DNA of 64,000 bases from an uncultured Armatimonadetes bacterium. GTDB taxonomy: Bacteria; Armatimonadota; UBA5829; DTJY01. The DNA is taken from NCBI GenBank assembly GCA_963717145.1, contig OY970325.1, positions 4,224,001-4,288,000 on the forward strand, in the 5' to 3' direction. Position numbers and translations under genes: made by a program. The notes beneath the pieces were generated by a model, which did not search any database, was not told the DNA's origin, and saw nothing but the letters and a program-made list of their open reading frames with translations. Below, one piece after another: positions 39,901 through 52,361 of the stretch (within the stretch, counting starts at the first letter, position 1; each line of letters opens with the position of its first letter).

Positions 39901-41425
39901 TGCGGACCGTCCCCGTGATGTTCCCTTGTGCGGCGGCGACGGTGATGGTCCAGGTGACCTCGCCTCCAAACCAGGTCACGCCTTCCTGAACCGGCCGGTA
40001 CTTCTCGACGTAGACTCCCGGAGTACTGGGCGCTTTGATTACGAAGGAGAACCGTCCGACCTGCCCGGTCGTCACGGCGCTCTGGTCAACAGCGGTCGGC
40101 CTGGTGCAGCCGATCCAGTTCCCCGACTGGAAGAACGGGCTGCAGCGGTCCTGCGGGCCCGAGGTGCCGAGATTCGTCGCGGCATGACCCCAGGTCGCCG
40201 TGCCGTCATTCACATACTCGGCCCAAACGACTGCGGTCGATCCAGCCGTCATGGACGCAGGATACGACTGCGCGTTGTAGTGAGCGGCATAGGATGGTGG
40301 AGGCGGAGCGCCCGCGACCACCTGGATGTAGTAGCCCCAGTCCCATCCACCGCCCGGATCCCAGTGAGACCCGCCGCAGTGGCAGTTATTGGCGTCATTG
40401 TGGCCCAGAATGCCCGGGGCGCAACTGCGATGCGCCTTCGGGATGCCCCATCTGTTGCACATATCGCGGGTGAGGAGCCCCGACGCATTGTAGAGGCTGG
40501 TCGGATGACTCGAGGAAGCAGCATATCCCTCGTGCTCGATGCCCAGTGAACGGCTGTTGATGCAGCCGACATGCCAGGCTCGGTAGTTCTCGTCCACGCA
40601 TTGCCAGACGCCGCCGGCTTCCGACACGACATAGTGGGCGGAAACCTGTGAGCTGCAGTTCCTGAACCACGATCTAGCGCCGGCAGCGGATCCCTCGATT
40701 GTATGGACAATAACGGTGTCTTTGGCTGTGTAATACGCGCTGTAGTTGCAGCTCGCGGCGGGGTACCAGGTGGCCCCCGAATACCCGGCCGCGGCTTTGA
40801 TCGCGGCCGGCATCAGCTTCTCGAAGTCGATCGAGCCGATGTTCTGAGCCGAGAATACGAAACTTTCCCCGGCGGCATTGGTGTAGTCAAGGCCTGCCTG
40901 GAGCTTCTGGAAGATCTCTCCCGCGAAGAACTTGCTGTTCTCCTCGTCGAGGCCGGCATACTTGATGACAGGTTCGAGCCAGGCTTCGAGCCCCTTTGCG
41001 CGATCGATCTTCATTCTTGCCGCATATGAACTGATTACGGCGGCGGCGGCCTTGATGTTGAGTGCCGGGTCGATCTGAAGAGCCTCCGTGGAGGAACTCA
41101 TCAGCGATGCCCCCGCGATGAGTGAATTGCCGCCCATCTTATTGTCACGGAGGGCCATGACTCCGTAGCCGCCCTCTATCGTCGGAGCGCCATAGCGGTT
41201 CTCGAACGCGCTGCCGAAGTAGCCGAGGGTAAGAAGGAGCGGGAGCGGGACGTTGTATTCCTTGGCCGCCGAGTCGAACACCGGCATAAGTGACGTCGTC
41301 CATGCCGTGGCTTTGGGATTCTTCATGGACGCAAAATCAGGCAATCCAGACTGATTGTCCTGTGCCGCTGCTCCTCCTATGAAGACAAACAGCAGCACCG
41401 GGATGAGTAGACGTGGAAATCTCAT
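36983..41425 (-). CDS. Secreted multidomain N-acetylmuramoyl-L-alanine amidase (Amidase_2) with carboxypeptidase-regulatory-like, FN3/Ig and a C-terminal lineage-type domain
   Basis: Signal peptide; VIVHTIEGS, VSAHYVV, AWHVG, SLGIEHEG, GH..HWDPG; FN3 PSNPSGLSAT..INLAWTAS. Confidence 0.88.
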   Translation of the reverse strand: MRFPRLLIPVLLFVFIGGAAAQDNQSGLPDFASMKNPKATAWTTSLMPVFDSAAKEYNVPLPLLLTLGYFGSAFENRYGAPTIEGGYGVMALRDNKMGGNSLIAGASLMSSSTEALQIDPALNIKAAAAVISSYAARMKIDRAKGLEAWLEPVIKYAGLDEENSKFFAGEIFQKLQAGLDYTNAAGESFVFSAQNIGSIDFEKLMPAAIKAAAGYSGATWYPAASCNYSAYYTAKDTVIVHTIEGSAAGARSWFRNCSSQVSAHYVVSEAGGVWQCVDENYRAWHVGCINSRSLGIEHEGYAASSSHPTSLYNASGLLTRDMCNRWGIPKAHRSCAPGILGHNDANNCHCGGSHWDPGGGWDWGYYIQVVAGAPPPPSYAAHYNAQSYPASMTAGSTAVVWAEYVNDGTATWGHAATNLGTSGPQDRCSPFFQSGNWIGCTRPTAVDQSAVTTGQVGRFSFVIKAPSTPGVYVEKYRPVQEGVTWFGGEVTWTITVAAAQGNITGTVRNAANSQALSGASVAISGGPSTTTNSSGVYTFNNLDPATYTLNVSKAGFDPTSGTAAVTAGATTTKDFNLVSTDATAPSNPSGLSATGISPSQINLAWTASTDTGGAGLAGYIIYRNSAEVGRTTATTYQDNGLTQNTSYSYFVKAYDNANNVSGASNTASAGTLPGTVAIFQDGFASINGALWSAIVQSPMSGPNPLVWDGGANHPGGFPGAGSIRSVDSGVSTQGCLLGHSFSPGFGAAKFESWFYDSSASNNSRQGLQVRCLDGSGGVKAIYYLGTYSAAPGSFSTYSAGYYKACGAGCTGWYWPGAASKARVVGWHKFTIDFQPYTGAGNEVKFYIDDILVSTVERTLDTQTYGLNMVAYGYHYRVNQAGWFDDCAMYASAPTVPTMGTPAALSSSSIRWSVTDTSNNEMGFRILDAAQTIKASAAVSNGTGAGVSIDEGSLAANTPYTRYAKSYNGTLNSLSSAAATRWTLAAAPSISCDRSAGVWYATPDFSFTAVGGFGQGTVSQYAYEWDGSPTHTWTGAEPIWNSGDLILGSAGSFYLHVKGFNGEGVASGTLDLGPFKFDTAPPLNPTSAVETGGAVDDQWQAAVSDPAFTWSGASDAESGIAGYLVYFGSDESATSETFVTDAAYDPAAVSTGTYYLRVRAKDNAGNLADEWETIFTFKYDSSAPDAPVVNDDGQYTGSSSTLHGSWNATDADSGIAEYQYAVGTASGGVDIVGWTSADANADANIAIPQPGLSLGTTYYISAKAKNGAGAWSDVASSDGIQLAAESLTIAAAKALTDTTPVGLISKVVTASFANSYYIQEGDRSSGILVLDSGPGPGAIVTVGGIMGVNAVGERAILEPVTTVESPANPALVPKGLYVPGRNLGGDDFNPLTPGLTLGSGLNNIGLLIQVAGTVESPGENQFFVNDGSPGGPIKVIAAGIDIGALAENDPVIVTGISSFEFDGTSRTPIIRLSGPEGIVER

Positions 41426-41612
41426 CAGATGTGCACCTCCCCAGGATTACGAAGCGCCGATATGTGGCAGACAAACGCAGGGTTACTTTACGTTCTATTA
41501 TACACCCATTCTGCGCCGCTGAGGTATCTCCTGTTCGGAAAAGAAAAATCAGGTATTTCTACCAGGTAGTGCATGCGATCGCCGAACTGATCTGCGGCTG
41601 TTATGAAAGCCC

Positions 41613-41641
41613 TTGCCTTTTCTTTACACTCCTGTTACAAT
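41613..41641 (+). promoter_or_regulatory. Putative sigma70 promoter with extended -10
   Basis: TTGCCT, 17 nt, TACAAT preceded by TG. Confidence 0.55.
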
Positions 41642-41753
41642 TGCGACGACCTTGCGTGGGATAGCTACCCATGCAGGCAATATAGCCCTATGGGCTCCGG
41701 GCTCAGGAAACATAGGATACTGCGCCCGGCCGAGGAAGCAAGGAGGAAATCGT

Positions 41754-42436
41754 ATGAAGTCAGCTTTTCGGATTGCGCTGGTCGTGGCATTCGTGCTCAT
41801 CGTCCAGCAGATGGTGCTCGGCAGCAGCATCATTACAATGCCGACCGCGGATGTCGCCCCGCAGGGACTGGTGAATGTGGCCGCTTATGCGGTCAACTTC
41901 AATGACCTGCCCGACCCGCCCTTGGCGCCGTCAGGGATGAATGTCTTCATCGCGTACGGCGCCATCGCGAAGAACCTGGAGTTGGAAGCCAACATCTATG
42001 ATCAGAAGGATGGCTTCGACACTCTCACTTTCTTCAACCTGACCTACAAGGTGGTGGAGCAGACCGCCACAATGCCGCAGATCTCAGTCGGAATCAAGAA
42101 CGTGCTGGGCGAGGACCTCGGCAACGGCGACGTCGCACCCAACGACGACGCGACGTACTTCATCACAGCGGTAAAGGTGATCACGGGCCCGGCGCCGGCG
42201 AGCCCTTCAAGCCGGTCGTTCGACTTCATGTCGGGCTCGGCAACAACCTTCACAATGGGATCTTCGGCGGAGTCCAGGCGATGCTCACTCCTCAGATCGG
42301 CCTGGCGCTGCTGAATGACGCCGAGAGCACGCTGATCTCGGGCGCCTACAAGCCGAGTGCGAACTCGCCGACCTTCAAGGCCGGCACGCTCGGAGATCAC
42401 ACCTGGTTCGGCATCGACTACGACGTGAAATTCTGA
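41754..42436 (+). CDS. Putative outer-membrane beta-barrel protein (indel near 42195)
   Basis: AGGAGG RBS, signal peptide, IITMPTADV; one added C continues as GEPFKPVVRLHVGLG...TWFGIDYDVKF* (terminal Phe). Confidence 0.65.
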
Positions 42437-42467
42437 GGCGTCGGTCCTCAGTTGTCGGTATGAACAG

Positions 42468-42502
42468 AAGGGCCTCCGGTCACACGACCGGAGGCCCTTT
42501 TT
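42468..42502 (+). terminator. Rho-independent terminator
   Basis: aagggcctccggtc-acac-gaccggaggccc-ttttt. Confidence 0.85.
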
Positions 42503-42610
42503 CACGTCTGATACCCAAACAACACCACAAACTCATCTTCTTAAGGTATAATGAGCATGGCAATCCCTCGTCGGGGATGCTTTCCGAGAGAGATCAAGCA
42601 GGTGTTCCGC

Positions 42611-45160
42611 ATGAAGTACGCACGAATTATCCTGGCAGCCATGGTCATACTCTGTCTGCCCGTCATAGCTCAGTCGTCGCCTCCACTGCTGTATGACAAC
42701 TTCGACGCCGCGACCGTCGGGACGATCCCGGCCGGATGGAGGGTCGCCAAGACCGTCGCCGGCACGAGCGCCCTCGTGCAGATCGGCACGCCCGCGGGCA
42801 ACAAGTGGCTGGTCATCCATGACGACAACGGCGCGGGGATCATCACCAGCAATACGGTCTCACGGACGGCGTCATTCGCGGCGGTGACGGGCTCGGATCG
42901 CTGCACGGCGCAGTTCGAAGTGATGCTCTCTCAGATCACCGCCGGATTCGGCATGCGGCTCACCAACGGCGACGTCGCGACAACTCTCTCCAACTGCGCG
43001 ACCTCGATCACCTTCGAGGGCAATATCCCATATGCGCCCAACGGGATTCCTGGCGCAATCTCATATCAGACCCAGACCAGCACCTACGCACGCTCGCCGC
43101 TTCTGACGACCTACGCCGCCGACACATGGTACACCGTACGAGTGGAGGCGAACGTCGGCAGCAAGATGTACAAGCTCTTCTTCGGTCCCAGGGGAGGCAC
43201 GCTGGCAGAGATCACCCCGACCGGTGGCGTCCAGTTCCTCGTAGCAGTCTCAGGGTCGCAGGTCAGCCAGATAGCCAACATCTCGTTCTTCACCTCCGTC
43301 AAGGATGGCGACGGACCGGGCGACATGACGATCGACAACGTGGAGGTCGTCCTCGGCGACCCGGAGCCGACCACACTGGTGAACACGATCGCGATGGCCC
43401 GGCTGCTCGACCGCAGTACCAAGATCAGCCTTACGGACAAGCTCGTGACTGCCGGCACCTCGAACGGAGTCTTCTATATCGAAGATGACGGCCCCGGGGT
43501 CAAGCGCGCCGCGGGCATCCGTGTACGATCCGGAACGATCGTGCAAGAGAACGATAAGGTCGATGTCATCGGCCGGATCGCCAATACCTCAGAGGCCAGA
43601 GGAACGTGGCATACGGGTGAGCGGGAGATCATCGCCGAGTCGGTATCGGTCCGGAGCACCGGAAACACGCCCCTGGAACCGTTCCTCATGCGCTGCTCGG
43701 ATGTCGGCGGCGGCTGGTATGGCCCGATGGAGATCACCATCAATGGCTCGGAGCCCGCAATCAAGGCGGTCTGGCCGTTCAACGCCTGGGGTGACAGCGG
43801 CGTTTCATCATGGAACTCCACTTATGGCCCGCTGAACAATACCGGCCTCCTCGTGACGGTGATCGGCAAGGTCACCGATCCGACGGTCTACGACATGTAC
43901 GGCACGAACTATGATTTCTACATCGACGATGGCAGCCTGACGAACGACGGATGGTTCGCCACTGCCACGCCCGAGGACGAAGCATTCAAGCCAAACGGTC
44001 TCCGCGTCCGAATTACCGATCCCTCCATACTAGATGACGTGCTTCCCATCTACCATGGCGATCATGTGAAGATCACCGGCATCGTGGGAGCAATCTCATG
44101 CGAAGACCTCGGCAGGGCGACCGTCCGCAACGTCAGGGTCGTTCGCCCAAGGAAGCCGGAGGACATCGAGATCATCCGCCGGCAGGAGCGATACGTCAAG
44201 TTCGACAAGCAGGGCAACTGCCTCGTCGGTGGCAAGCCGTTCTTCCCGATCGGCATATTCATCTATGCGTGGGATTCGCTCGTCCGGCCGGAGGTCCTCG
44301 CCAAGCAGTTCAACACGGTGATCTATGCCGTCACGCCCGATCAGCTCGACAGCCTGCAGGCGGACGGGCTGATGACGATCCCGTATGCCACGGAGGAGTG
44401 GATCGCGCACAAGGACCATCCCGCGATCCTGGCATGGTACCTCGACGACGAGCCGGAGGGTCACGGGCTTACTCCCGCGTATGAGCGCGACTACTATGAG
44501 CGAACGCGCGCCGCCGATCCCACGAGGCCCGCTGGAACGGCGCACTTCTTGTATGATTCTCTGTGGAACTACCGGTTCTGCGACGACTACACGATGTCGG
44601 ACGTCTACCCGCTTCACCGGATGAACATCTGGTCGATGACCGATCACATCAACCGCCTACACCAGATCCACGGGCAGAACTTCCCGGTGTGGCCGGCGAT
44701 CCAGTCATTCGGCGGCACGGAGGGCTACGGCATCCCCTCTCCGGCCGAGGAGCGCGCGATGACCTACATGGCGCTGGCGGCCAACTCGAAGGCGATCCTG
44801 TACTTCTCGTACTATCCGTCGCTCACGGAAACATGGGCTGAGGTCGGGGTGCTCGTGCAAGAACTCAAGGCGCTGACACCATTCTACTGCCTGCCTTCCA
44901 TCGAAGGCGGTCATGGCAATACGAATAGCTGGATAATGACGCGACTGATACGAAACGGAGCGTCCGGTCTGCTCATCACCGTCAATTACTCGTACTCAGC
45001 CCAGACAGCGACGATCACTCTGCCCGCGGGTGCGCCTTCGACGCTCAATCTGCCGTTGGAAGGCGGAAGCATCCCTGTCACAGGCGGCTCGTTCACGGCG
45101 GACTACACGCCGCTCCAGGTCCACGTCTACCAGTGGGGCCCGATCCCGGCGATGCCGTAG
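42611..45160 (+). CDS. Secreted protein: beta-sandwich domain + lineage-type domain + putative glycoside hydrolase TIM barrel
   Basis: Signal peptide; GKPFFPIGIF, HPAILAWYLDDEP, MSDVYP, PVWPAIQSF. Confidence 0.75.
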   Translation: MKYARIILAAMVILCLPVIAQSSPPLLYDNFDAATVGTIPAGWRVAKTVAGTSALVQIGTPAGNKWLVIHDDNGAGIITSNTVSRTASFAAVTGSDRCTAQFEVMLSQITAGFGMRLTNGDVATTLSNCATSITFEGNIPYAPNGIPGAISYQTQTSTYARSPLLTTYAADTWYTVRVEANVGSKMYKLFFGPRGGTLAEITPTGGVQFLVAVSGSQVSQIANISFFTSVKDGDGPGDMTIDNVEVVLGDPEPTTLVNTIAMARLLDRSTKISLTDKLVTAGTSNGVFYIEDDGPGVKRAAGIRVRSGTIVQENDKVDVIGRIANTSEARGTWHTGEREIIAESVSVRSTGNTPLEPFLMRCSDVGGGWYGPMEITINGSEPAIKAVWPFNAWGDSGVSSWNSTYGPLNNTGLLVTVIGKVTDPTVYDMYGTNYDFYIDDGSLTNDGWFATATPEDEAFKPNGLRVRITDPSILDDVLPIYHGDHVKITGIVGAISCEDLGRATVRNVRVVRPRKPEDIEIIRRQERYVKFDKQGNCLVGGKPFFPIGIFIYAWDSLVRPEVLAKQFNTVIYAVTPDQLDSLQADGLMTIPYATEEWIAHKDHPAILAWYLDDEPEGHGLTPAYERDYYERTRAADPTRPAGTAHFLYDSLWNYRFCDDYTMSDVYPLHRMNIWSMTDHINRLHQIHGQNFPVWPAIQSFGGTEGYGIPSPAEERAMTYMALAANSKAILYFSYYPSLTETWAEVGVLVQELKALTPFYCLPSIEGGHGNTNSWIMTRLIRNGASGLLITVNYSYSAQTATITLPAGAPSTLNLPLEGGSIPVTGGSFTADYTPLQVHVYQWGPIPAMP

Positions 45161-45181
45161 TCCACCTGCACTCCCTCTGCG

Positions 45182-45290
45182 CCCCTCCTTACGAAGGAGG
45201 GGCCGGCCAGCAGGCCGGGGGAGGTTCGCGTGCCGATACCCTGGCAGAAACCCCCTCGGCCCAGAGGCCGGTCCCCCTTCGTAAGGGGGA
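45182..45290. repeat. Inverted pair of CCCCTCCTT-type palindromes between convergent genes
   Basis: cccctccttacgaaggaggggccggcc ... ggccggtcccccttcgtaaggggga. Confidence 0.7.
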
Positions 45291-45303
45291 CATCCCGGAT
45301 CGC

Positions 45304-48300
45304 TTATACCGACAGCCCCACGAAGAGCCGGGCGTCGATGCTGGTGAGCGGATCGACCTCTCCATTCGCGGCGGCATCGGCGAAGACGATGCCCGGGTAC
45401 TTCGCCCTCATCGCCCGATCGAGGACGTTGAACCCCTTCGGCTCGGCGTACTCCCGGACTCCGTATGCCCCGCGAAGGGTTTCCAGGGCGATCTCTCCGA
45501 GGCCTTCGCGGGCGCTCGGGACGAGAGCGAACATCTCTTCGGATGTGAGACCTTCCGCCAGGCCATGCCGGATCGGGATGCCGTCCTGCGTGCCGGTCGA
45601 TCCTACGAGCCTGACCAGCCAGCGCATGTTCCCCCGCGCGCGGCTCTTCACCGCGAGCATCTGAGGCCCGAGATCGCAGCTATCGAAGTCGGTCCAGGCC
45701 CCCAGTGCTTCCTCGAGCGCGGCCGAGTACTTCTCCCACTCCTTCGGGTCGCCGCTCTCCGGCATCGCGGGCCGATGGAGGCTCTCCCCGACAAATGGGC
45801 TGAGTGACGCTCCGGACTCCTTGGCTACACGGAGGCCGAGGTCGAGCAGCTTATCGGAGGTTTGGAGCATCCGGTCGATTCCGTCCCTCTCAAGGATATC
45901 GGTTAGTGTGTCGATGATCGACTCGCGGGTGACGTATCCCTCCGGGATGGCGATCTCCACGCCGGCGATCTGCTCGATCTCTCCTAGATCGGTCATGCTC
46001 AGGGCGGCCGAGCCCCCACAGCGCCTCGAAGCGAGGGAAGATCAGCTTCGCCAGGGATGGGTCTCGGCGCAGGTGTCCGGCGATCGAGAGCTTCTCCCCG
46101 GCCTCCTTCTGGCCTGCCTCGGTGAGCGGTAGGAACACCGCAGCATGGTCGCCGTCGAAGTCTCCGTTCACCAGCATGCACGCCAGCGGGTGAAGCCTGA
46201 TCGTGCGGTCGCCGCTTCGTACCGGATGGAACGCCAGGAGCGCGGTCGGCATGAACGTCGGCGAGCGGTTGACAAGCACCCACGACCGGGCCATGGTCGC
46301 GTCCAGGGTCTGAGTCGCTCGTTCGGACCGAGCCTCTACCTCCGACATGTCCATTTCGCGGGCGACGAGCGGTCCGAAGATCGCCCATGCGATATCATCC
46401 GCCAAGCCGACCTGATCGGTCCGCAGACCGACTCCCGGCGAGAGCACGGTTCGCCCGCTGAAGAGGATCGGCTGGTGGAACCGCAGGTTCTCCGGCACGA
46501 GCAGCAGATCGAAGTAAGCCCTGACCGCCGACTCGAGATCGCCGTACGACCTCTGCCTGAGGCTTTCGGGAGCGCCGCTTGAGATCATGCGGGCTATCTT
46601 CGTGTTCGCCTCGACGAGCGTCGCCCATGTAGGAGGGGGTTTCCGGTCTACCCCGACCGTGGGCGCACCGACCTCCTCCAGCATCCTCTCGGGCAGCCAC
46701 GGATGCGGGACCGGGCATGCCAAGTTGAGGACTTCCCCTTCAGGAGAAGCGAACCGGAATGCCAGTCTGCCATCCTCCAGTTGAGTATGGATGCCGCCCG
46801 CTGCCAGACGCTCGGCGACCTCAGTGAAATCCGGGGTGGGGGGACCGGCCTGTTCGATCGGGCCGGACACCACTCGTTCCGCGAACGACTCCGCTCCCTC
46901 GCGTTCAGTGGACCGCGTGTTGAACTGCTCACGGATGTTCTCGAATGCGCCGACATCGCGCATGGCATAGTACTCATTCTCGCCCTGCCTGCACACTGGT
47001 TCGCCGGGCCTGGTTCCGATGAAGAGCTTGCTGTGGGCGAGGTGGACTGTCTTGCCCCAGTAGACATAGCCGACTGTGCTCGGACGATCGAGCTTCCGGC
47101 CGCCTTTGCCAAGCGTCAGAGTCTCCATCCCGCTCTCGGGCAGACCGGCCTTCACGAGCCGTTCCCTGATCTCCTCAGCCTTAGGGGCGTGGAAAGGCGG
47201 GGCAATGAACGGCGTCCCTTCCGCACGAGCGATCCGGCCGGCGACCGCCTCCCGCACGACGCCGAAGATCAGCCGCGTGTGGAGCGCGATGAAGTTGTAG
47301 ACCAGTTCGACCGGCGTGCCGTCGGGCAGATGAGGCATCCCGTCGTCGGGGACGATGCGGCTGATGCAGCCCTTCGCGCCATGCCGGTTGGTGATCTTGT
47401 CGCCGGGCTCGAGCGGCCTGGGGTAGCCGAGACGCTTCGCCGCCGATTCGCTGATGAGGATGCCGTCCTCGAAGGTATCGCGGCCCCAGGAGACGAACGC
47501 GGTGAGGAGGTTTCGCCCGCACCAGAATCCCGGTGCGCTGAACTCGTTGCCGGTCTGAACGAGCGCAGGCTCGGGTCCGGAGCGACCACCCACTGGCGCA
47601 TCATGTTCACGCCCATGAGGATCCGGGTCGAATCATCGTGCTCCAGGAACGGGACCAGAGAGGCGACCATACCCAGAGCGGCTTCCGGCCGATCATCTAC
47701 GATAACCAGTCTGCTATCTCGGATCTCCGCGCCGACCGCGACGGAGAGCACGCGCCCGACGTTGGGGCCTTCCGGCGTCTCGAACGGGCAGACGCGCCCG
47801 AAGTGCGAGGGAGTGATCAGCTTCTCCCGAGTTGGGATGAGCAGCCTGCGGGAGTGGGTCACGGTCGCCAGGCGGTCGGTCTTGTCGAGCCACTGACCGA
47901 TCCCATCCACGGCTTCGGCGACCCAGGTGTCGAGGGGGAGCCACGATCTCATCAGCGCCTGGTCGAAGGTGACGTCCTTTGGGGCCTCGCCAAGGCGCTC
48001 GCCGACGTAGTCGTAGAGCTGTTCGCCGACGCACTTGATATCGGCGGTGTCCAGGTACTCGTTCGACGCGACCGGCAGCACGATCATATGCCCATCGCGG
48101 ATCTGAAAGATGCCCCATTCATCCGGGCGAAGGATCTCATACTCCATCTCGGCATCGCCAACGGTGACCTCCAGCCGGCATGTGTACTCGTCACATTCGG
48201 CCTGGTAGCCGGAGAGCGGCAGGCGGTCAGCCAGCAACTCAGGCAGGCGCTCGTTGATAAACCGGTCATAGGATTCCCTATGCCAGGGTGTAGCAATGTT

Positions 48301-48312
48301 CAATGTCATCAT
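45304..48312 (-). CDS. Miniature single-chain RpoB-RpoC fusion (two-barrel RNA polymerase-like, ~1,002 aa after correcting two compensating indels)
   Basis: Collinear beta motifs (HFGRVCPFETPEGPNVG, PFLEHDD..R.LMG.NM.RQ, FEDGILISE, GDK..RHGAKG, TVGY.Y..K..H) followed in the same ORF by beta' motifs (SGR.V, NRSPT, NGDFDGD, SRARG, EGL..E.F....AREGL); 3009 nt from start to stop; indels near 47574 and 46008. Confidence 0.9.
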
Positions 48313-48887
48313 GATTCCTCCCATTCGCGTTCGAGGTTTCTCCATTCGCGAGCGAGACGCTTTCTGGCATAATGCAGGCGCGATTTGACCGTTCCCTCCG
48401 GCACGCCGAGCGCCTCGGCGACCTCCTGGATCTCCATCTCGAACTCGTGGACCAGCCGAAGCACCTCCCGCTTGTCGGCGGGAAGCTCCTCCACCAGCGC
48501 TCGAAAGAGCCTGTTCCGCTGGGCCAACTCGACCGCTTCTTCCGGACGAAGCGCGTCGGCCTCGTAGTCATGCTCTTCCGCAGAGAATTCCAGGGGCGAT
48601 TCCCTCCTGCGGCGGACGGTTCGGAGGTAGTTCAGCGCCGTGTTCGTGGCAATGCGCAGGATCCAGCCGTTGAGCGACCCTCGTCCGTCCCACTGATCGG
48701 CGTGCGTCCACACTCTCAGCAGGACCTCCTGGGTCAGGTCGCGGGCGGCGTCCGAGTCACGGATGATGTCGCGGAGTCGGAGGGTGATCGCCCTCTCGTA
48801 TCGTGCGGCAAGCGCATCGAACGCCTCGGGGTCACTCCCGGCGATCCGTGACATCAGTTCCGCATCGGACAGATCGTGCATAGCCAT
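48309..48887 (-). CDS. ECF-family sigma70 factor
   Basis: Region 2 DLTQEVLLRVW..WILRIATNTALNYLR; region 4 EVAEALGVPEGTVKSRLHYARKRL; stop overlaps the next start (ATGA). Confidence 0.95.
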   Translation of the reverse strand: MAMHDLSDAELMSRIAGSDPEAFDALAARYERAITLRLRDIIRDSDAARDLTQEVLLRVWTHADQWDGRGSLNGWILRIATNTALNYLRTVRRRRESPLEFSAEEHDYEADALRPEEAVELAQRNRLFRALVEELPADKREVLRLVHEFEMEIQEVAEALGVPEGTVKSRLHYARKRLAREWRNLEREWEES

Positions 48888-48911
48888 GCCTCAAACGTCT
48901 CCCACTGCCAA

Positions 48912-48938
48912 TGACACCGGGGAGCGGGCGGGGGTTCA
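48912..48938 (-). promoter_or_regulatory. Putative ECF-type promoter upstream of the sigma gene
   Basis: Minus strand TGAACC, 16 nt, TGTCA; matches the general ECF AAC..GTC pattern. Confidence 0.5.
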
Positions 48939-49054
48939 GTACCTGGATGTGATCTGCAGTTGCCGAAAGAGGTCAGGCATGCACCGATCAGTCGCTTTGC
49001 AGAACGGATCCTGCCAGCGACTGTCAGACAGGTCCCATGCGGGCCACACATCGG

Positions 49055-49759
49055 TTAGTCAGCTATGTCAGCCGGTCTGATCGAGCTGAACCTTGATTCA
49101 TCTTGAAGCATTCTGCCGAACGCCTGCATAAAGGTCTTGATACTCTGCACGACTGGCTTATCGTACTCCGTCAGTTCCTCTCTGACCCGTTTGGAAAGAG
49201 AGGAGTGTGGTTTGTAGAGAATATCGTGTTCGATCTCGCGGTAACGGTCAAGAATCCAGGGCACTACCTGGATCTCACAGACACACTGCAGTCCGAATCT
49301 GGGCGGAATTGGAACGCAATACTGAAGCTGATCGACCTCATCCACGTAGGAGCTATAGGGCTTGTTCCCACGGGCCGGTTTATGATCCTCAGTGCAGGAA
49401 GGATATGCCTTCTTGATAACATCATGCACATTCTTCAAGTAGGAGTTTGGGCAGACCTGTACCTTCACTCCCGCCATATCTGTCAAGGAGCCAAACGTGT
49501 AATCATCTAGTCTTTCAGGGTCGAAGAAGTTGCCTTCCTGCCGCTGCTGGAGCTTGGCAGACGCGCTGTCGAATGACTTGACTCTGCCGACAATCTGGAT
49601 GCGTTCAAAGGGCAAGAGCTGCGACCGCAGCCCAAGCAATCTATACTCCAAGGTGGCCTTGACTATGTCAACAGCATTCGCATACATACTGACGTTCGCT
49701 TGGTATTCCATCAGCAGCCTGTTCTGCACCAAGGTTGAAGTATCATCGGCTGTCAACAT
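49055..49759 (-). CDS. RelA/SpoT synthetase-domain protein (small alarmone synthetase-like, degenerate)
   Basis: GRVKSFDSASAK (RxKxxxSxxxK), TDMAGVK (DxxGxR-like), CEIQV, REIEHDILYK. Confidence 0.8.
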   Translation of the reverse strand: MLTADDTSTLVQNRLLMEYQANVSMYANAVDIVKATLEYRLLGLRSQLLPFERIQIVGRVKSFDSASAKLQQRQEGNFFDPERLDDYTFGSLTDMAGVKVQVCPNSYLKNVHDVIKKAYPSCTEDHKPARGNKPYSSYVDEVDQLQYCVPIPPRFGLQCVCEIQVVPWILDRYREIEHDILYKPHSSLSKRVREELTEYDKPVVQSIKTFMQAFGRMLQDESRFSSIRPADIAD

Positions 49760-49763
49760 GCGA

Positions 49764-50018
49764 CTAGGTAGCTTCCGTTAGCAGTTTGCCAAGTTCATTC
49801 TGGAGGGTCAGGGAAGGCGGTCTGTTGAAGTAGAACTCCCAACCATGTTTCCGCTTGGGTGCGAGAACCATGTCCGCGAGCTTGTCTGGATGATCCTCGA
49901 CGTACTCCAAACTGAAGCATTTCATGGTGACGCGGTTGACGAAGACATCCCTGTCGAAGAGGTAGCGGTACCCCTGCTGCTCAAGAAAACGTATAGACTC
50001 GCGTGTTCTCGGATCCAT
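49764..50018 (-). CDS. Small hypothetical protein (84 aa)
   Basis: GGAGG upstream; ends 4 nt before the RelA/SpoT-domain gene. Confidence 0.7.
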   Translation of the reverse strand: MDPRTRESIRFLEQQGYRYLFDRDVFVNRVTMKCFSLEYVEDHPDKLADMVLAPKRKHGWEFYFNRPPSLTLQNELGKLLTEAT

Positions 50019-50129
50019 CTGAATATGCCTCCGTGGACGAGCGGTTCGCCACCATCAACTATGCACGCACCCTATTCTAGCGCAAAAAACCGGAATGATC
50101 AAGTAGAAAGCACCATCCATAGGTGCTTG

Positions 50130-51269
50130 TCAGAGATCGCCCTGCTGGACGGTGACCACATCTTGTCCTCTCAGCGTGACATCATCCAGGTACTCGACGG
50201 CCACTCCCTGCGGCGCGAGCAAGTCGTGCAGCCGGGGAGCGAGTTCGACCATGCCGGGGCGCTCGGTCCAGAAGTGCGTCGCGTCGATCACGTTGATTCC
50301 GAGCGCCTTCGCTTCGAGGAACTGGTGGTGGTTCACGTCGCCGGTGACGTAGACATCCGCGCCCATCGAGTGCGCGAGGCCTATCCGCTTACTGCCTCCA
50401 CCGCCGAGCATCGCGACCCTTTCCACCTTCGACTCCGGGTCGCCCGCCGTGCGCGGGTCCGGGACGCGGAGGACCTCACAGACCATCGAGCAGAACGCCC
50501 CGAATGTCGTCGGCGACTCGAGCCTGCCATACAAGCCGATGCCGTGCACCCGCCCCTCGTTCGCCAGGGGATAGACGTCGTAGGCGACCTCCTCATATGG
50601 GTGGGCGGCGGTCATCGCGGTGATCACGTCATGCAGGCGTTCGTCGGGGACGATCGTCTCGAGCCGGACCTCGGGCGTCTTCTCCAGCTCGCCGACCTTC
50701 CCGACGTATGGTTCCGCGCCCTCAAGCGCCTTGAACGTGCCGGTCCCTGTGGTCTGGAACGTGCAATGCGAGTACTTGCCGATCCAGCCCGCGCCCGCCT
50801 CGGAGATCGCATCCCGGACGGCATCGAGCGCATCCTCAGGGACGAAGGTCACCAGCTTGAACAGCTTGTCCGTCCACGTCGGCAGTAGGACCTTCGTGTC
50901 CACTACTCCCATCTTCTCCGCGAGTGTGTCGTTGATGCCACCATCCGCCGAGTCGAAGTTCGTGTGCATGACATAGAGGCCGATCCCTGTGTTGATGAGC
51001 TGATAGACGAGCGACTGCGGGTACACATCGAGTCGCACGCTCGGCAACGGCTGCCAACTCGGGCTGATGAGCGGATGGTGCGTGATGAGCAGGTCGGCGG
51101 ACCGGCGCGCGCACTCCCGGACGATGCCGGGGGTCACGTCGAGCGAGACGACGATGGTGCGCAGGTCCGCCTCAGGGTCGCCGATCTGAAGGCCGATCGC
51201 GTCGCCCTCCTGAGCATATTTCGGCGGGGCGATCCCCTCGAGTATCGGGATGATGTCTCCCAGCTTCAT
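50130..51269 (-). CDS. Nif3-like dinuclear metal center protein (YqfO type with inserted PII/CutA-like domain)
   Basis: D.IGLQIG, LITHHPL, HTNFD..GGIND, KLVTFVP, HPYEEVAYD, TGDV.HH, H..TE. Confidence 0.95.
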   Translation of the reverse strand: MKLGDIIPILEGIAPPKYAQEGDAIGLQIGDPEADLRTIVVSLDVTPGIVRECARRSADLLITHHPLISPSWQPLPSVRLDVYPQSLVYQLINTGIGLYVMHTNFDSADGGINDTLAEKMGVVDTKVLLPTWTDKLFKLVTFVPEDALDAVRDAISEAGAGWIGKYSHCTFQTTGTGTFKALEGAEPYVGKVGELEKTPEVRLETIVPDERLHDVITAMTAAHPYEEVAYDVYPLANEGRVHGIGLYGRLESPTTFGAFCSMVCEVLRVPDPRTAGDPESKVERVAMLGGGGSKRIGLAHSMGADVYVTGDVNHHQFLEAKALGINVIDATHFWTERPGMVELAPRLHDLLAPQGVAVEYLDDVTLRGQDVVTVQQGDL

Positions 51270-51423
51270 GGCGCGCCTCCTCGGAACATCGATGCTGATA
51301 ACAGCATTTTCGACGGAATCCGCCCTTTCTACTCCTGACCGGCCAAACCGAGTCGGACGCCTATTCCCTAACTCTTAATTAACTATGTTTCATAACTCGA
51401 CCAGGCAGGGTATAGGACAGTGT

Positions 51424-51598
51424 ACAAGCAGGGGGACGAGGCCCCATCAACAACCCCAGGATTAAGACGACCGCTAGACCGGAGGCTTCACCCTCTCCTT
51501 CCCTCACACTGAGGGGAAGGAGAGGGTGACCAAGCGGGCGAGGGGGATGGCACCATAGGGTTGCCGCTGGGGATCAGGAGGGGCCTTCCTCCGCTTGG
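51424..51598 (+). ncRNA. Candidate structured ncRNA (~175 nt rod, 6S-like); strand uncertain
   Basis: Ends pair (caagcagggggacgaggcccc / ggggccttcctccgcttg), inner ccccag/ctgggg, apical hairpin 51488-51529; no convincing ORF. Confidence 0.25.
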
Positions 51599-51710
51599 AT
51601 TTGTGCCTCCTGTGCCGACCCAATGTTTAACCGCTGACCCGGCGAGACACCTTCGGCCAGGAGGCACATTGCGTCTCGGCCTCACTTCACTGGGATCCTA
51701 AGAAAGCCCA

Positions 51711-51827
51711 CACCGTCAGTCCTGAGTGCGCCGGTGAATGACGGCGTGTAACGAAGGACGGCTCGGTGCAGCAAGGCCGTCCTTCGTTACACGCCGTCAT
51801 TCACCGGCGCACTCAGGACTGACGGTG
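51711..51827. repeat. Perfect 52-bp inverted repeat, 13-nt loop
   Basis: 51711-51762 is the exact reverse complement of 51776-51827. Confidence 0.95.
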
Positions 51828-51914
51828 GTTTCCGCCAGAAACAACTACGCAAACTGCGTAGTGACTTGCTCAGAATGACACCCGCGTAGCGCAACTTCCA
51901 ACAATCGTGAACTC

Positions 51915-52361
51915 CTACCCCTTCCGCCGGGGAACAGTCGCATCGAGTATCAGGCGATGCAGGTCGGAGAGCCTGCTGAGGAGGCGACGAAGCTCCCTCA
52001 TGTCGCCCGGACTGATCTCGTCCTTCAGGAGCGAACACATCCACTTGGTACACTCGAACGGCCGGAGGTCGTCCGGGAAGACGCATCCATGCTCACCGAG
52101 ATAGTCGCAGGGCTCGAGCGCGTCATCGGTCGCGCGCCCCTTGAGCGCCTCGATGCACGCATCGACGAATTCGCGGGCGGTGGCTTTCGGCTCGATGTCG
52201 TACCCGGCCGCCCGGGCGAGGATCACATCGAAATCGCGAACCTTTGTCGGCTTTCGGCAGCAGGGTTCCGGGCACTCGGGGCAGAACCTTGTCGTATATG
52301 GATTGAGGCATTGCCTGATGCGTTTGTGAGTGGCTCGATATTTGTCGATTAGATTTGCCAT
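51915..52361 (-). CDS. Cysteine-cluster protein (YkgJ/CxxCxxCC-like)
   Basis: FCPECPEPCC, PCDYL...GC..PDDLRPFEC..WMC. Confidence 0.75.
   Translation of the reverse strand: MANLIDKYRATHKRIRQCLNPYTTRFCPECPEPCCRKPTKVRDFDVILARAAGYDIEPKATAREFVDACIEALKGRATDDALEPCDYLGEHGCVFPDDLRPFECTKWMCSLLKDEISPGDMRELRRLLSRLSDLHRLILDATVPRRKG

Follow-up and report, generated by a model that had tools for sequence, protein, structure and literature searches.

A reduced, single-chain relative of the bacterial RNA polymerase core paired with an ECF-type σ factor in an uncultured Armatimonadetes bacterium

Results

Mini-RNAP Is a Single-Chain Fusion of Reduced β and β′

In a 64,000-nucleotide (nt) stretch of DNA from an uncultured Armatimonadetes bacterium (GenBank assembly GCA_963717145.1, contig OY970325.1, positions 4,224,001 to 4,288,000 of the forward strand; herein the window, whose numbering is used unless a contig position is indicated), the minus-strand gene at 45304-48312 encodes a single-chain fusion of a reduced β and a reduced β′ subunit of RNA polymerase (RNAP), with β first. 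The product, herein mini-RNAP, has β shortened from ~1,340 to ~515 residues and β′ from ~1,400 to ~490. Motif and profile evidence indicates that it retains both double-psi β-barrels, the Asp triad, the β lysines, the fork, the F-loop, the bridge helix, the clamp helices, and the C-terminal region H; the β lobes, the flap, the β′ zinc ribbon, the rudder, the trigger loop, and the jaw have no counterpart in profile or structure alignments and are presumably absent. As judged from the overlap of their reading frames, the gene is translationally coupled to a gene for a σ factor of the extracytoplasmic function (ECF) type, the two forming a conserved cassette. The family appears to be an undescribed, σ-coupled variant of the bacterial polymerase core that has neither flap nor trigger loop.

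The gene runs from an ATG at 48312 to a stop codon at 45304-45306 (~1,002 codons plus stop) and is tiled by three overlapping minus-strand open reading frames (ORFs; 47269-48345, 45890-47593, and 45304-45996). Pfam RNA_pol_Rpb2_3 matches the first of these, and RNA_pol_Rpb2_6 (1.4e-30) and RNA_pol_Rpb1_2 (6.2e-15) match the second; zero Pfam families matched the third. An intact database orthologue of 1,018 residues (P0001) aligns end to end with the window pieces at 80 to 84% identity, and tblastn places its residues 1-251 at 48312-47566, 245-785 at 47581-46007, and 783-1018 at 46014-45307. An initial annotation of this DNA had placed mini-RNAP at 45304-47480 and had noted neither its true start nor the frame breaks, the conserved promoter, or the size of the family; that interval covers only the 3′ 72% of the gene, and the frame breaks by +1 at ~46009 inside it and by −1 at ~47572 just upstream. 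The features of the gene and its surroundings are collected in Table 1.

Table 1. Features of the mini-RNAP gene and its cassette (window coordinates)
Feature	Position	Strand	Remarks
Cassette promoter, TGAAC (48938-48934), 14 nt, CGGTGTC (48919-48913)	48913-48938	-	Motif conserved upstream of σ
ECF-type σ gene, 192 residues, regions 2 and 4 only	48309-48887	-	Pfam Sigma70_r2, Sigma70_r4_2, Sigma70_ECF
Frame piece A	47573-48312	-	N-terminal β: sheet domain, fork/rifampicin-pocket region, PFLEHDD...MMRQ block; Pfam RNA_pol_Rpb2_3
Fork/rifampicin-pocket region FGRVCPFETPEGPN	47761-47802	-	Piece A; profile match to E. coli β
PFLEHDD...MMRQ block	47593-47652	-	Piece A
Frame break 1 (−1)	47570-47575	-	One base short relative to orthologues, at GACCCGAGCC
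Frame piece B	46010-47572	-	β barrel to β′ barrel; RNA_pol_Rpb2_6 and RNA_pol_Rpb1_2, profile alignment
TFEDGILISE, β barrel	47447-47476	-	Piece B
14-residue linker SAAKRLGYPRPLEP at the flap's expected place	47405-47446	-	Piece B
GDKITNRHGAKG (GDK...RHG.KG lysine block), β barrel	47369-47404	-	Piece B
LACPVPHPWL	46694-46723	-	Piece B, after β C terminus
22-residue variable linker	46628-46693	-	Piece B, ahead of clamp helices
Clamp helices (coiled coil)	46499-46627	-	Piece B
Switch-2-like LRFHQPILFSGRTV	46445-46486	-	Piece B
NRSPTF	46253-46270	-	Piece B
NGDFDGD (Asp triad)	46148-46168	-	Piece B
Frame break 2 (+1)	46008-46010	-	One surplus base, at CTCGGCCGCC
Frame piece C	45304-46008	-	Helical region past β′ barrel, F-loop, bridge helix, region-H-like C terminus
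F-loop AVKSRARGN	45628-45654	-	Piece C
Bridge-helix motif AREGLGEIALETLRGAYGVR	45454-45513	-	Piece C; predicted helix ~45448-45543
Region-H-like C terminus, FADAAANGEVDPLTSIDARLFVGLSV	45307-45384	-	Piece C; 49 residues remain after bridge-helix motif
Palindromic repeat, 43 nt, two hairpins	45252-45294	.	Directly 3′ of mini-RNAP gene

Domains Retained and Lost

A family profile built from 121 family proteins (alignment A1) was aligned to E. coli RpoB and RpoC. The segments of E. coli β that it covers are residues 474-581 (the fork and rifampicin-pocket region, with a shortened fork loop), 653-707, 787-823, 1054-1130, and 1177-1342, with a 15-residue gap at the switch-3 region; those of β′ are 267-512 (clamp helices to the Asp-triad barrel), 587-639, and 723-799 (F-loop and bridge helix). 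No counterpart in the profile was found for β 1-473 (bar a weak 26-residue stretch), 708-786, 824-1053, and 1131-1176, nor for β′ 1-100, 132-266, 513-586, and 800-1310, the last of which holds the trigger loop, an insertion, and the jaw. About two profile positions stand in the place of β 824-1053, the flap with its insertion. Mini-RNAP scores far below the cut-off of every rpoB and rpoC model in NCBIfam (165.7 vs. 801.15 for TIGR02013; 76.6 vs. 963.5 for TIGR02386).

These alignments bear out most of the deletions that the initial annotation had proposed from motifs. GDK had been placed within ~15 residues of FEDGILISE, with the flap gone; the intervening linker is exactly 14 residues long, and β 824-1053 has no match. 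The β′ part had been read as starting at LACPVPHPW with no Cys4 zinc ribbon: the β C terminus indeed leads straight into this motif with no Cys cluster before it, and LA.PVPHPWL aligns weakly on E. coli ELASPTAHIWF (β′ 106-116), just past the zinc-ribbon cysteines. The clamp coiled coil is kept as described, its motif N..RL.RM corresponding in the profile alignment to E. coli β′ NNRLKRL. The passage from bridge helix to region H with no trigger loop is likewise found, the short remainder of the chain having nothing aligned to β′ 800-1310; its last 45 residues resemble by eye an E. coli segment (AA..G..D.L.......VG..P) that we take, in name and numbering, to be region H. Lid and rudder had both been reported missing. 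For the rudder this holds, the β′ 267-512 match having a 25-residue gap immediately past the clamp helices, at the rudder's place; loss of the lid cannot be asserted, its position being held by a 22-residue variable linker of low model confidence. No divergent flap or trigger loop turned up when E. coli RpoB and RpoC were compared with the A1 profile, and the losses extend beyond those first listed to the β lobes, β 708-786, β 1131-1176, part of the fork loop, the 15 residues at switch 3, and β′ 513-586.

The AlphaFold2 model of P0001, computed with alignment A1, has a predicted local distance difference test (pLDDT) score of 93.8 and a predicted template modeling (pTM) score of 0.90; only residues 555-574, which form the linker at the lid's position, fall below 50. 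The best 50 chains retrieved by Foldseek for this model are all β or β′ from bacterial or plastid polymerases, and a profile search of solved structures returned β at 1.4e-69 and β′ at 1.3e-50. In VIA-align, whose rows list β and β′ homologues only and which is not a wide search against other folds, residues 1-514 of the model superpose on E. coli β 21-1341 with 511 residues aligned (root mean square deviation [rmsd] 2.8 Å, Z 29.7, 31% identity). Over the ~510 superposed residues the identity is 29 to 31% to bacterial β, 26 to 27% to archaeal B, and 21 to 24% to eukaryotic Rpb2. The remaining β of the model is almost wholly superposable, i.e., the deletions are predicted to be domain-precise. 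The relation to the bacterial RNAP core anticipated by the initial annotation is seen both in this superposition and in the match of the model to β′ chains.

Window piece C, folded alone (pLDDT 85.2), contains a long helix at residues 152-183. Its residues 64-230 span M. tuberculosis β′ 730-1258 (161 to 166 residues aligned, rmsd 4.0 to 4.7 Å, Z 8.0 to 8.9), a stretch of 528 residues, so that ~360 residues including the trigger loop are bridged by few residues. The same part of piece C lies on T. thermophilus β′ 948-1472 (Z 8 to 9), and shorter alignments end at 1105, the end of the bridge helix. The Z values are middling for a helical piece; all 50 rows are β′ or split equivalents in one register.

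The Catalytic Center Is Conserved

Alignment A1 contains 40 invariant columns, the Asp triad included. D736, G737, D738, and R699 are invariant among the 121 sequences, and N732, D734, K306, K314, D283, and P701 are each present in 90% of them or more. The β-type barrel is represented in the window by the lysines of GDKITNRHGAKG and the acidic FED of TFEDGI. Ruprich-Robert and Thuriaux list eight invariant active-site residues of two-barrel RNAPs, among them the R and P of NR.PT (PMC2919709). Mini-RNAP agrees with this list: NRSPTF is present, with R699 invariant and P701 near-invariant. On sequence grounds it belongs to the two-barrel (double-psi β-barrel) RNAP superfamily, with bacterial β/β′ as its nearest kin, and the family-wide conservation of the Asp triad, the β lysines, the R and P of NR.PT, the F-loop, and the bridge helix indicates that the protein probably catalyzes nucleotide addition.

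Two further observations concern the N-terminal part of the protein. At ~47850-47900, in the fork and rifampicin-pocket part of piece A, the rifampicin-pocket residues that we take to be Q513, D516, H526, and R529 in the numbering of E. coli β are kept in the alignment, but the position aligned with S531 is Leu in the window and in the family consensus. Leu at this position is a classic rifampicin-resistance substitution. In the closest genomic orthologue (80% identity; locus L010, 622-3819, in genome G001), ~45 additional residues of low complexity separate the fork and PFLEHDD blocks; this segment is absent from both the window copy and P0001.

The Two Frame Breaks Are Most Likely Assembly Errors

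Read across both shifts, the window copy has zero in-frame stops and retains 40/40 invariant and 227/236 near-invariant family columns, compared with 229/236 for P0001. The orthologues are continuous through ...P(D/E)PEPALVQTG... at break 1 and through LWGLA.LS at break 2; in other genomes they are ORFs of 989 to 1,194 residues unless a contig end cuts them. Both sites were compared with three soil-metagenome DNA runs of one study (X1 to X3), each containing 7 to 8% of sampled words; there was no RNA run among those found. At break 2, all short-read contigs spanning the site lack one base at 46009 or 46010 (two contigs per run in X1 and X2, which are one sample; the contigs are from related strains, 90 to 99% alike), the deletion having a depth of 12.6/12.6 and 20/20 in the two runs. 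Without this base the frame is restored and the sequence reads LWGL-AALSM, matching the orthologues. At break 1, no short-read contig in the three runs bridged the site with at least 31 bases on either side; the loose end of one 151-base contig (run X3, depth 3) reads by eye as the window sequence plus one base.

The genome assembly consists of one contig of 5.37 Mb. Alignment of E. coli RpoB and RpoC to this contig reveals at least 4 frame changes in rpoB and at least 9 in rpoC (rpoB-rpoC at contig 2465857-2474108), and both dnaE-type genes are broken (contig 851459-852232 and 3643198-3643977), one being an ORF of 327 residues and the other having an internal stop and a second frame; gyrA, fusA, and tuf are whole. 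With so many indel errors in the assembly, any frame break in the window has to be weighed against that background. The two breaks are most likely assembly indels rather than mutations, because rpoB, rpoC, and dnaE are broken alike, the orthologues are intact, the conserved columns are kept, and the related contigs are in frame at break 2. A decaying pseudogene, in which both breaks would be true mutations, would fit a window sequence that, as given, shifts frame twice within 3 kb, but we regard it as very improbable: the genes broken elsewhere in the assembly are essential, other family members are all intact, and the absence of in-frame stops, the full set of invariant columns, and the in-frame contigs at break 2 speak against it as well. 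Programmed ribosomal frameshifting (−1, then +1) would yield the full-length protein, and both shifts do restore one continuous homologous reading; it is unsupported because no orthologue shifts at either position, and with the housekeeping genes of the same assembly full of like shifts it is extremely improbable. The reduced architecture is kept in 121 proteins, with all invariant columns present in the window copy and near residue-for-residue superposition, in agreement with the earlier view that selection, not decay, shaped it.

A Conserved σ Gene and Promoter Define the Cassette

The σ protein scores 107.2 against a cut-off of 42.9 with NCBIfam TIGR02937, and no specific subfamily model reaches its cut-off. 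The σ stop codon overlaps the polymerase start as ATGA, and the same −3 gap is frequent among family loci. Of 43 family loci with flanking sequence, 42 have an ECF-type σ gene immediately upstream in the same orientation, and the one exception starts 53 bases from a contig end; besides σ, no neighbor is common to more than 4 of the 43 (antisense shadows of the σ gene excepted). In most family σ factors the linker that joins regions 2 and 4 contains a conserved P.WMID motif, and the tail is an acidic W.EE (alignment A2, columns ~120-150).

In ECF promoters, the −35 element contains AAC and the −10 element GTC, ~17 nt apart. Just upstream of σ, TGAAC-N14-CGGTGTC is found in 35 of the 43 family loci, from several phyla (one mismatch per half tolerated, spacing 13 to 15 nt), and all but one of these are spaced by 14 nt; the motif is also present in 2 of 4 loci of relatives (L011, L012). 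The consensus, TGAACcT...GCGGTGTC, is followed by a purine-rich, ribosome-site-like GTGGAGG, and the σ start codon lies 25 nt past the motif in the window and 5 to 38 nt past it in most loci. The layout argues for σ as a working, autoregulated specificity factor. Within 45000-49200, neither a σ70-type promoter on the gene's strand nor an intrinsic terminator was found.

The strict promoter motif occurs once in the 5.37-Mb genome, at the cassette itself, against 0.75 occurrences expected. Two weight-matrix matches score like the true site, at contig 19495+ and 2458899+. The first (TGGAC-N14-CGGTGTC), the best match outside the cassette, is intergenic and lies ~100 nt upstream of a small ORF for a membrane or secreted protein that begins MKRFLIIINLV; the match may mark a second target or belong to another ECF σ, and proves nothing. 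The second lies antisense within a ribosomal-protein operon and proves nothing either. Eleven identical one-mismatch copies (TGAAC-N14-AGGTGTC) were set aside: they lie in a repeated IS3-like element, antisense to its transposase frame, and are taken to be one chance match multiplied by transposition. Copies of this element are near-identical (e.g., contig 179776, 180997, 4171887, and 4172954).

A complex of the mini-core with σ was predicted from window residues 12-258 (first frame) and 7-529 (second frame) and the window σ, with the family alignment of each. It scored 0.59, against 0.00 for the best of three controls, and was graded as weak support; of 80 solved complexes 58 attain the mark for this score, as do 2 of 110 mismatched pairs, and scores at the mark of 0.60 or less belong to only 7 of the 80 solved complexes and to both passing mismatches. 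At least 67% of contacts recur between the runs, and the pLDDT of the partner is 69 or higher.

Distribution of the Family

The databases contain at least 120 relatives of mini-RNAP, of 1,002 to 1,106 residues, each having two or all three of its Pfam domains. They are called "hypothetical protein" wherever they are named and are otherwise unnamed; a cluster look-up of seven family proteins returned no names or accessions. Two clusters in the ESM Atlas (135 and 73 members) have the same make-up. Other clusters there combine Rpb2_6 and Rpb1_2 in one protein, with representatives of 1,330 to 1,787 residues, one of them auto-named with "Inorganic Pyrophosphatase", which suggests a wider range of single-chain β-β′ fusions in metagenomes. 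Among GTDB species, metagenome-assembled genomes carrying the family are labeled as Poribacteria, Armatimonadota, Chloroflexota (several classes), Phycisphaerae, Brocadiia, Latescibacterota, and Gemmatimonadota. In the window's phylum it is present in 18 of 301 sampled genomes (~6%) and 14 of 159 genera; 5 of 41 close relatives, the window's genome included, carry it. The best 80 viral loci have 21 to 44% identity to mini-RNAP in the best segment. Among the PADLOC defense models, 0 families matched mini-RNAP, and σ gave only weak helix-turn-helix-type matches (E ≥ 5.5e-4).

The searched open-access literature and bioRxiv yielded no study of a reduced β-β′ fusion accompanied by an ECF σ, and in the main text of the article that reclassified the ECF σ factors (PMC7826278) the terms Rpb1, Rpb2, rpoB, "RNA polymerase beta", and Armatimonadetes do not occur.

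Sequences Surrounding the Cassette

The 43-nt palindromic repeat 3′ of the mini-RNAP gene has 45 copies in the genome (up to 6 mismatches) and a very high depth in soil-metagenome contigs. It looks like a repetitive extragenic palindromic (REP)-like intergenic repeat, not specific to the cassette, and is a possible transcript end. An Rfam scan of 41000-52000 gave nothing above the gathering score; a long hairpin at 51726-51813 matches two microRNA-precursor models well below it (57.5 vs. 100 and 32.9 vs. 94) and is probably just a strong inverted repeat. On the minus strand, 49055-49759 encodes a 234-residue protein with a RelA_SpoT nucleotidyltransferase domain (26.0 vs. a Pfam cut-off of 27), and an 84-residue ORF (49764-50018) stands immediately ahead of it on the same strand. 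The two may be a small alarmone-synthetase-type toxin-antitoxin pair; neither of them is conserved beside the cassette in other genomes or matches a model in PADLOC or NCBIfam.

Discussion

We consider mini-RNAP best read as an active, trigger-loop-less polymerase that uses its own σ, a reading to which we give about an even chance. In the proposed sequence of events, σ together with the host core would first fire TGAAC-N14-CGGTGTC and switch the cassette on; σ region 2 would then dock on the clamp helices of the mini-core, as suggested by the retention of these helices and by the obligatory σ partner. Mini-core and σ would together make a minimal, self-amplifying holoenzyme that synthesizes RNA without a trigger loop, presumably with lower fidelity, with no intrinsic cleavage, and with the docking sites for most host regulators gone. 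The initial annotation had suggested that the protein may be a slow or abortive polymerase. Loss of the trigger loop does not imply a poor enzyme, because YonO of the Bacillus prophage SPβ, which has no detectable trigger loop, is described in PMC5467207 as forming phosphodiester bonds as efficiently as multisubunit RNAP; the same paper describes it as a processive DNA-dependent RNAP that is less accurate and in which cleavage activity is absent.

Several observations weigh against an active enzyme directed by its own σ. The flap, the seat of σ region 4, is absent from the mini-core. In every holoenzyme known to us it is the flap that holds region 4, and its absence makes −35 recognition at normal ECF spacing on the mini-core hard to explain; the spacing of the cassette promoter fits the host core at least as well. 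The lobes and the jaw, which hold downstream duplex DNA, are missing too. The regulon scans show no output beyond the cassette's own operon, and in five other carrier genomes the strict motif occurs 0 to 3 times, against 0 to 4 for a reversed-pattern control. The σ factors of the window and of locus L059 are without P.WMID, through a 12-residue deletion. The pass of the predicted complex, for its part, may come from the model's memory of solved σ-β′ complexes.

The σ-sequestering mimic that the initial annotation had offered as anti-σ would explain why the genes are ordered as they are, why an anti-σ is missing, and why targets are not seen. In that case σ would use the host core only, and the mini-protein would be a decoy core capturing σ region 2 on its clamp helices, in negative feedback. 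An anti-σ gene typically follows the σ gene of an ECF operon at once and is coupled with it in translation; the mini-RNAP gene is found in just this arrangement, and no anti-σ domain is present in or beside the cassette (Pfam finds only Rpb2_3, Rpb2_6, and Rpb1_2 on the partner). Clamp helices kept in a protein that has lost the flap, an ordinary ECF promoter layout, and the lack of visible further targets speak for a decoy, with which the weak complex prediction is equally compatible. Yet in a pure decoy there would be no need for the Asp triad to be invariant, or for the β lysines, the F-loop, the bridge helix, and the R and P of NR.PT to be conserved among the 121 sequences; the entire active-site scaffold superposes on real polymerases, and ~1,000 residues make a costly anti-σ. 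Gene position and the missing anti-σ thus favor the mimic, which leaves the conserved catalytic residues unexplained, and we judge it unlikely. Mini-RNAP could also be an active polymerase on a substrate other than promoter DNA, such as a primer or short-RNA synthase, an RNA- or single-strand-templated enzyme, or one acting at nicks or R-loops, with σ only expressing or tethering it. The elements that hold duplex DNA and guide RNA exit are gone (lobes, jaw, rudder, zinc ribbon, and flap), a regulon was not found, and RNA or single-stranded templates serve some other reduced enzymes with two barrels, an example being QDE-1 (PMC9508822). The strict pairing with a promoter-specificity factor (42/43 loci), the retention of its docking helices, and the fact that the closest relatives in sequence and structure are bacterial DNA-dependent enzymes make such a substrate quite unlikely.

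Parts of the cassette resemble known systems. Like ECF σ/anti-σ operons, it has two translationally coupled genes, a σ of regions 2 and 4 first, and an AAC...GTC-type promoter; the second gene of those operons encodes a protein with an anti-σ domain, whereas here it encodes a polymerase homologue. Bacterial RpoB and RpoC are closest by sequence and fold and have the catalytic motifs, fork, clamp helices, F-loop, and bridge helix in common with mini-RNAP, but they are two chains of ~2,750 residues in total, as against one of ~1,000, and mini-RNAP is an extra gene beside a normal rpoBC. An enzyme that is flap-less and otherwise clearly of the bacterial β type is unusual. Full-length β::β′ fusions (NCBIfam NF011417 and NF007172, which we take to be the Wolbachia and Helicobacter types) are also one chain in the same order; they have all domains (2,839 to 2,890 profile positions) and are the cell's sole polymerase, whereas mini-RNAP is additional and scores far below their models (168.8 vs. 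a cut-off of 4,632 and 121.4 vs. 5,372).

Further reduced enzymes are known. The best viral matches to mini-RNAP are the "mReC" β/β′ of Caudovirales, which are likewise reduced relatives outside the host core genes; in the one viral locus inspected (phage locus L103), β and β′ are separate genes of 899 and 1,045 residues, and the available text on the mReC phage RNAP mentions no σ association (PMC7481178). YonO resembles mini-RNAP in architecture only, as a single ~100-kDa chain without a trigger loop and most regulatory domains; as described, it has few active-site residues in common with β/β′ and no known σ (PMC5467207), whereas mini-RNAP has β/β′ homology along its whole length and is paired with σ. 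Orf6 of yeast killer plasmids (Rpb2::Rpb1) has the same fusion order, with about half of the coding sequence deleted (PMC2919709), and is set apart as a σ-less, cytoplasmic plasmid enzyme of eukaryotic descent; it is reported (PMC7824862) to retain a flap-type insert in the β barrel, which mini-RNAP is without. In the available text of the sources for YonO, Orf6, and the full-length β::β′ fusions, a pairing with σ was not found.

We tentatively propose, at somewhat less than even probability, that the cassette encodes the smallest known σ-dependent transcription machine: a 110-kDa single-chain core and a 22-kDa ECF σ with their own promoter, which would work without α, ω, flap, or trigger loop and would not respond to most host regulators, nor possibly to several antibiotics and phage inhibitors that target polymerase. 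As an orthogonal expression module that amplifies itself, it would have spread patchily through six or more phyla, most of them uncultured. If mini-RNAP is active with σ, it would define the minimal β/β′ elements that suffice for σ-directed transcription, a question so far approached, to our knowledge, only via deletion mutants of the full enzyme. It would also show how σ region 4 can be positioned without a flap, and would provide a compact, two-gene orthogonal transcription system of the bacterial type. Should it turn out to be a decoy with an intact catalytic center, it would represent a new class of anti-σ. Either way, the family occurs in ~6% of the genomes sampled from this phylum, as well as in Poribacteria, Chloroflexota, Planctomycetota, Latescibacterota, and Gemmatimonadota, and at present carries no annotation beyond "hypothetical protein".

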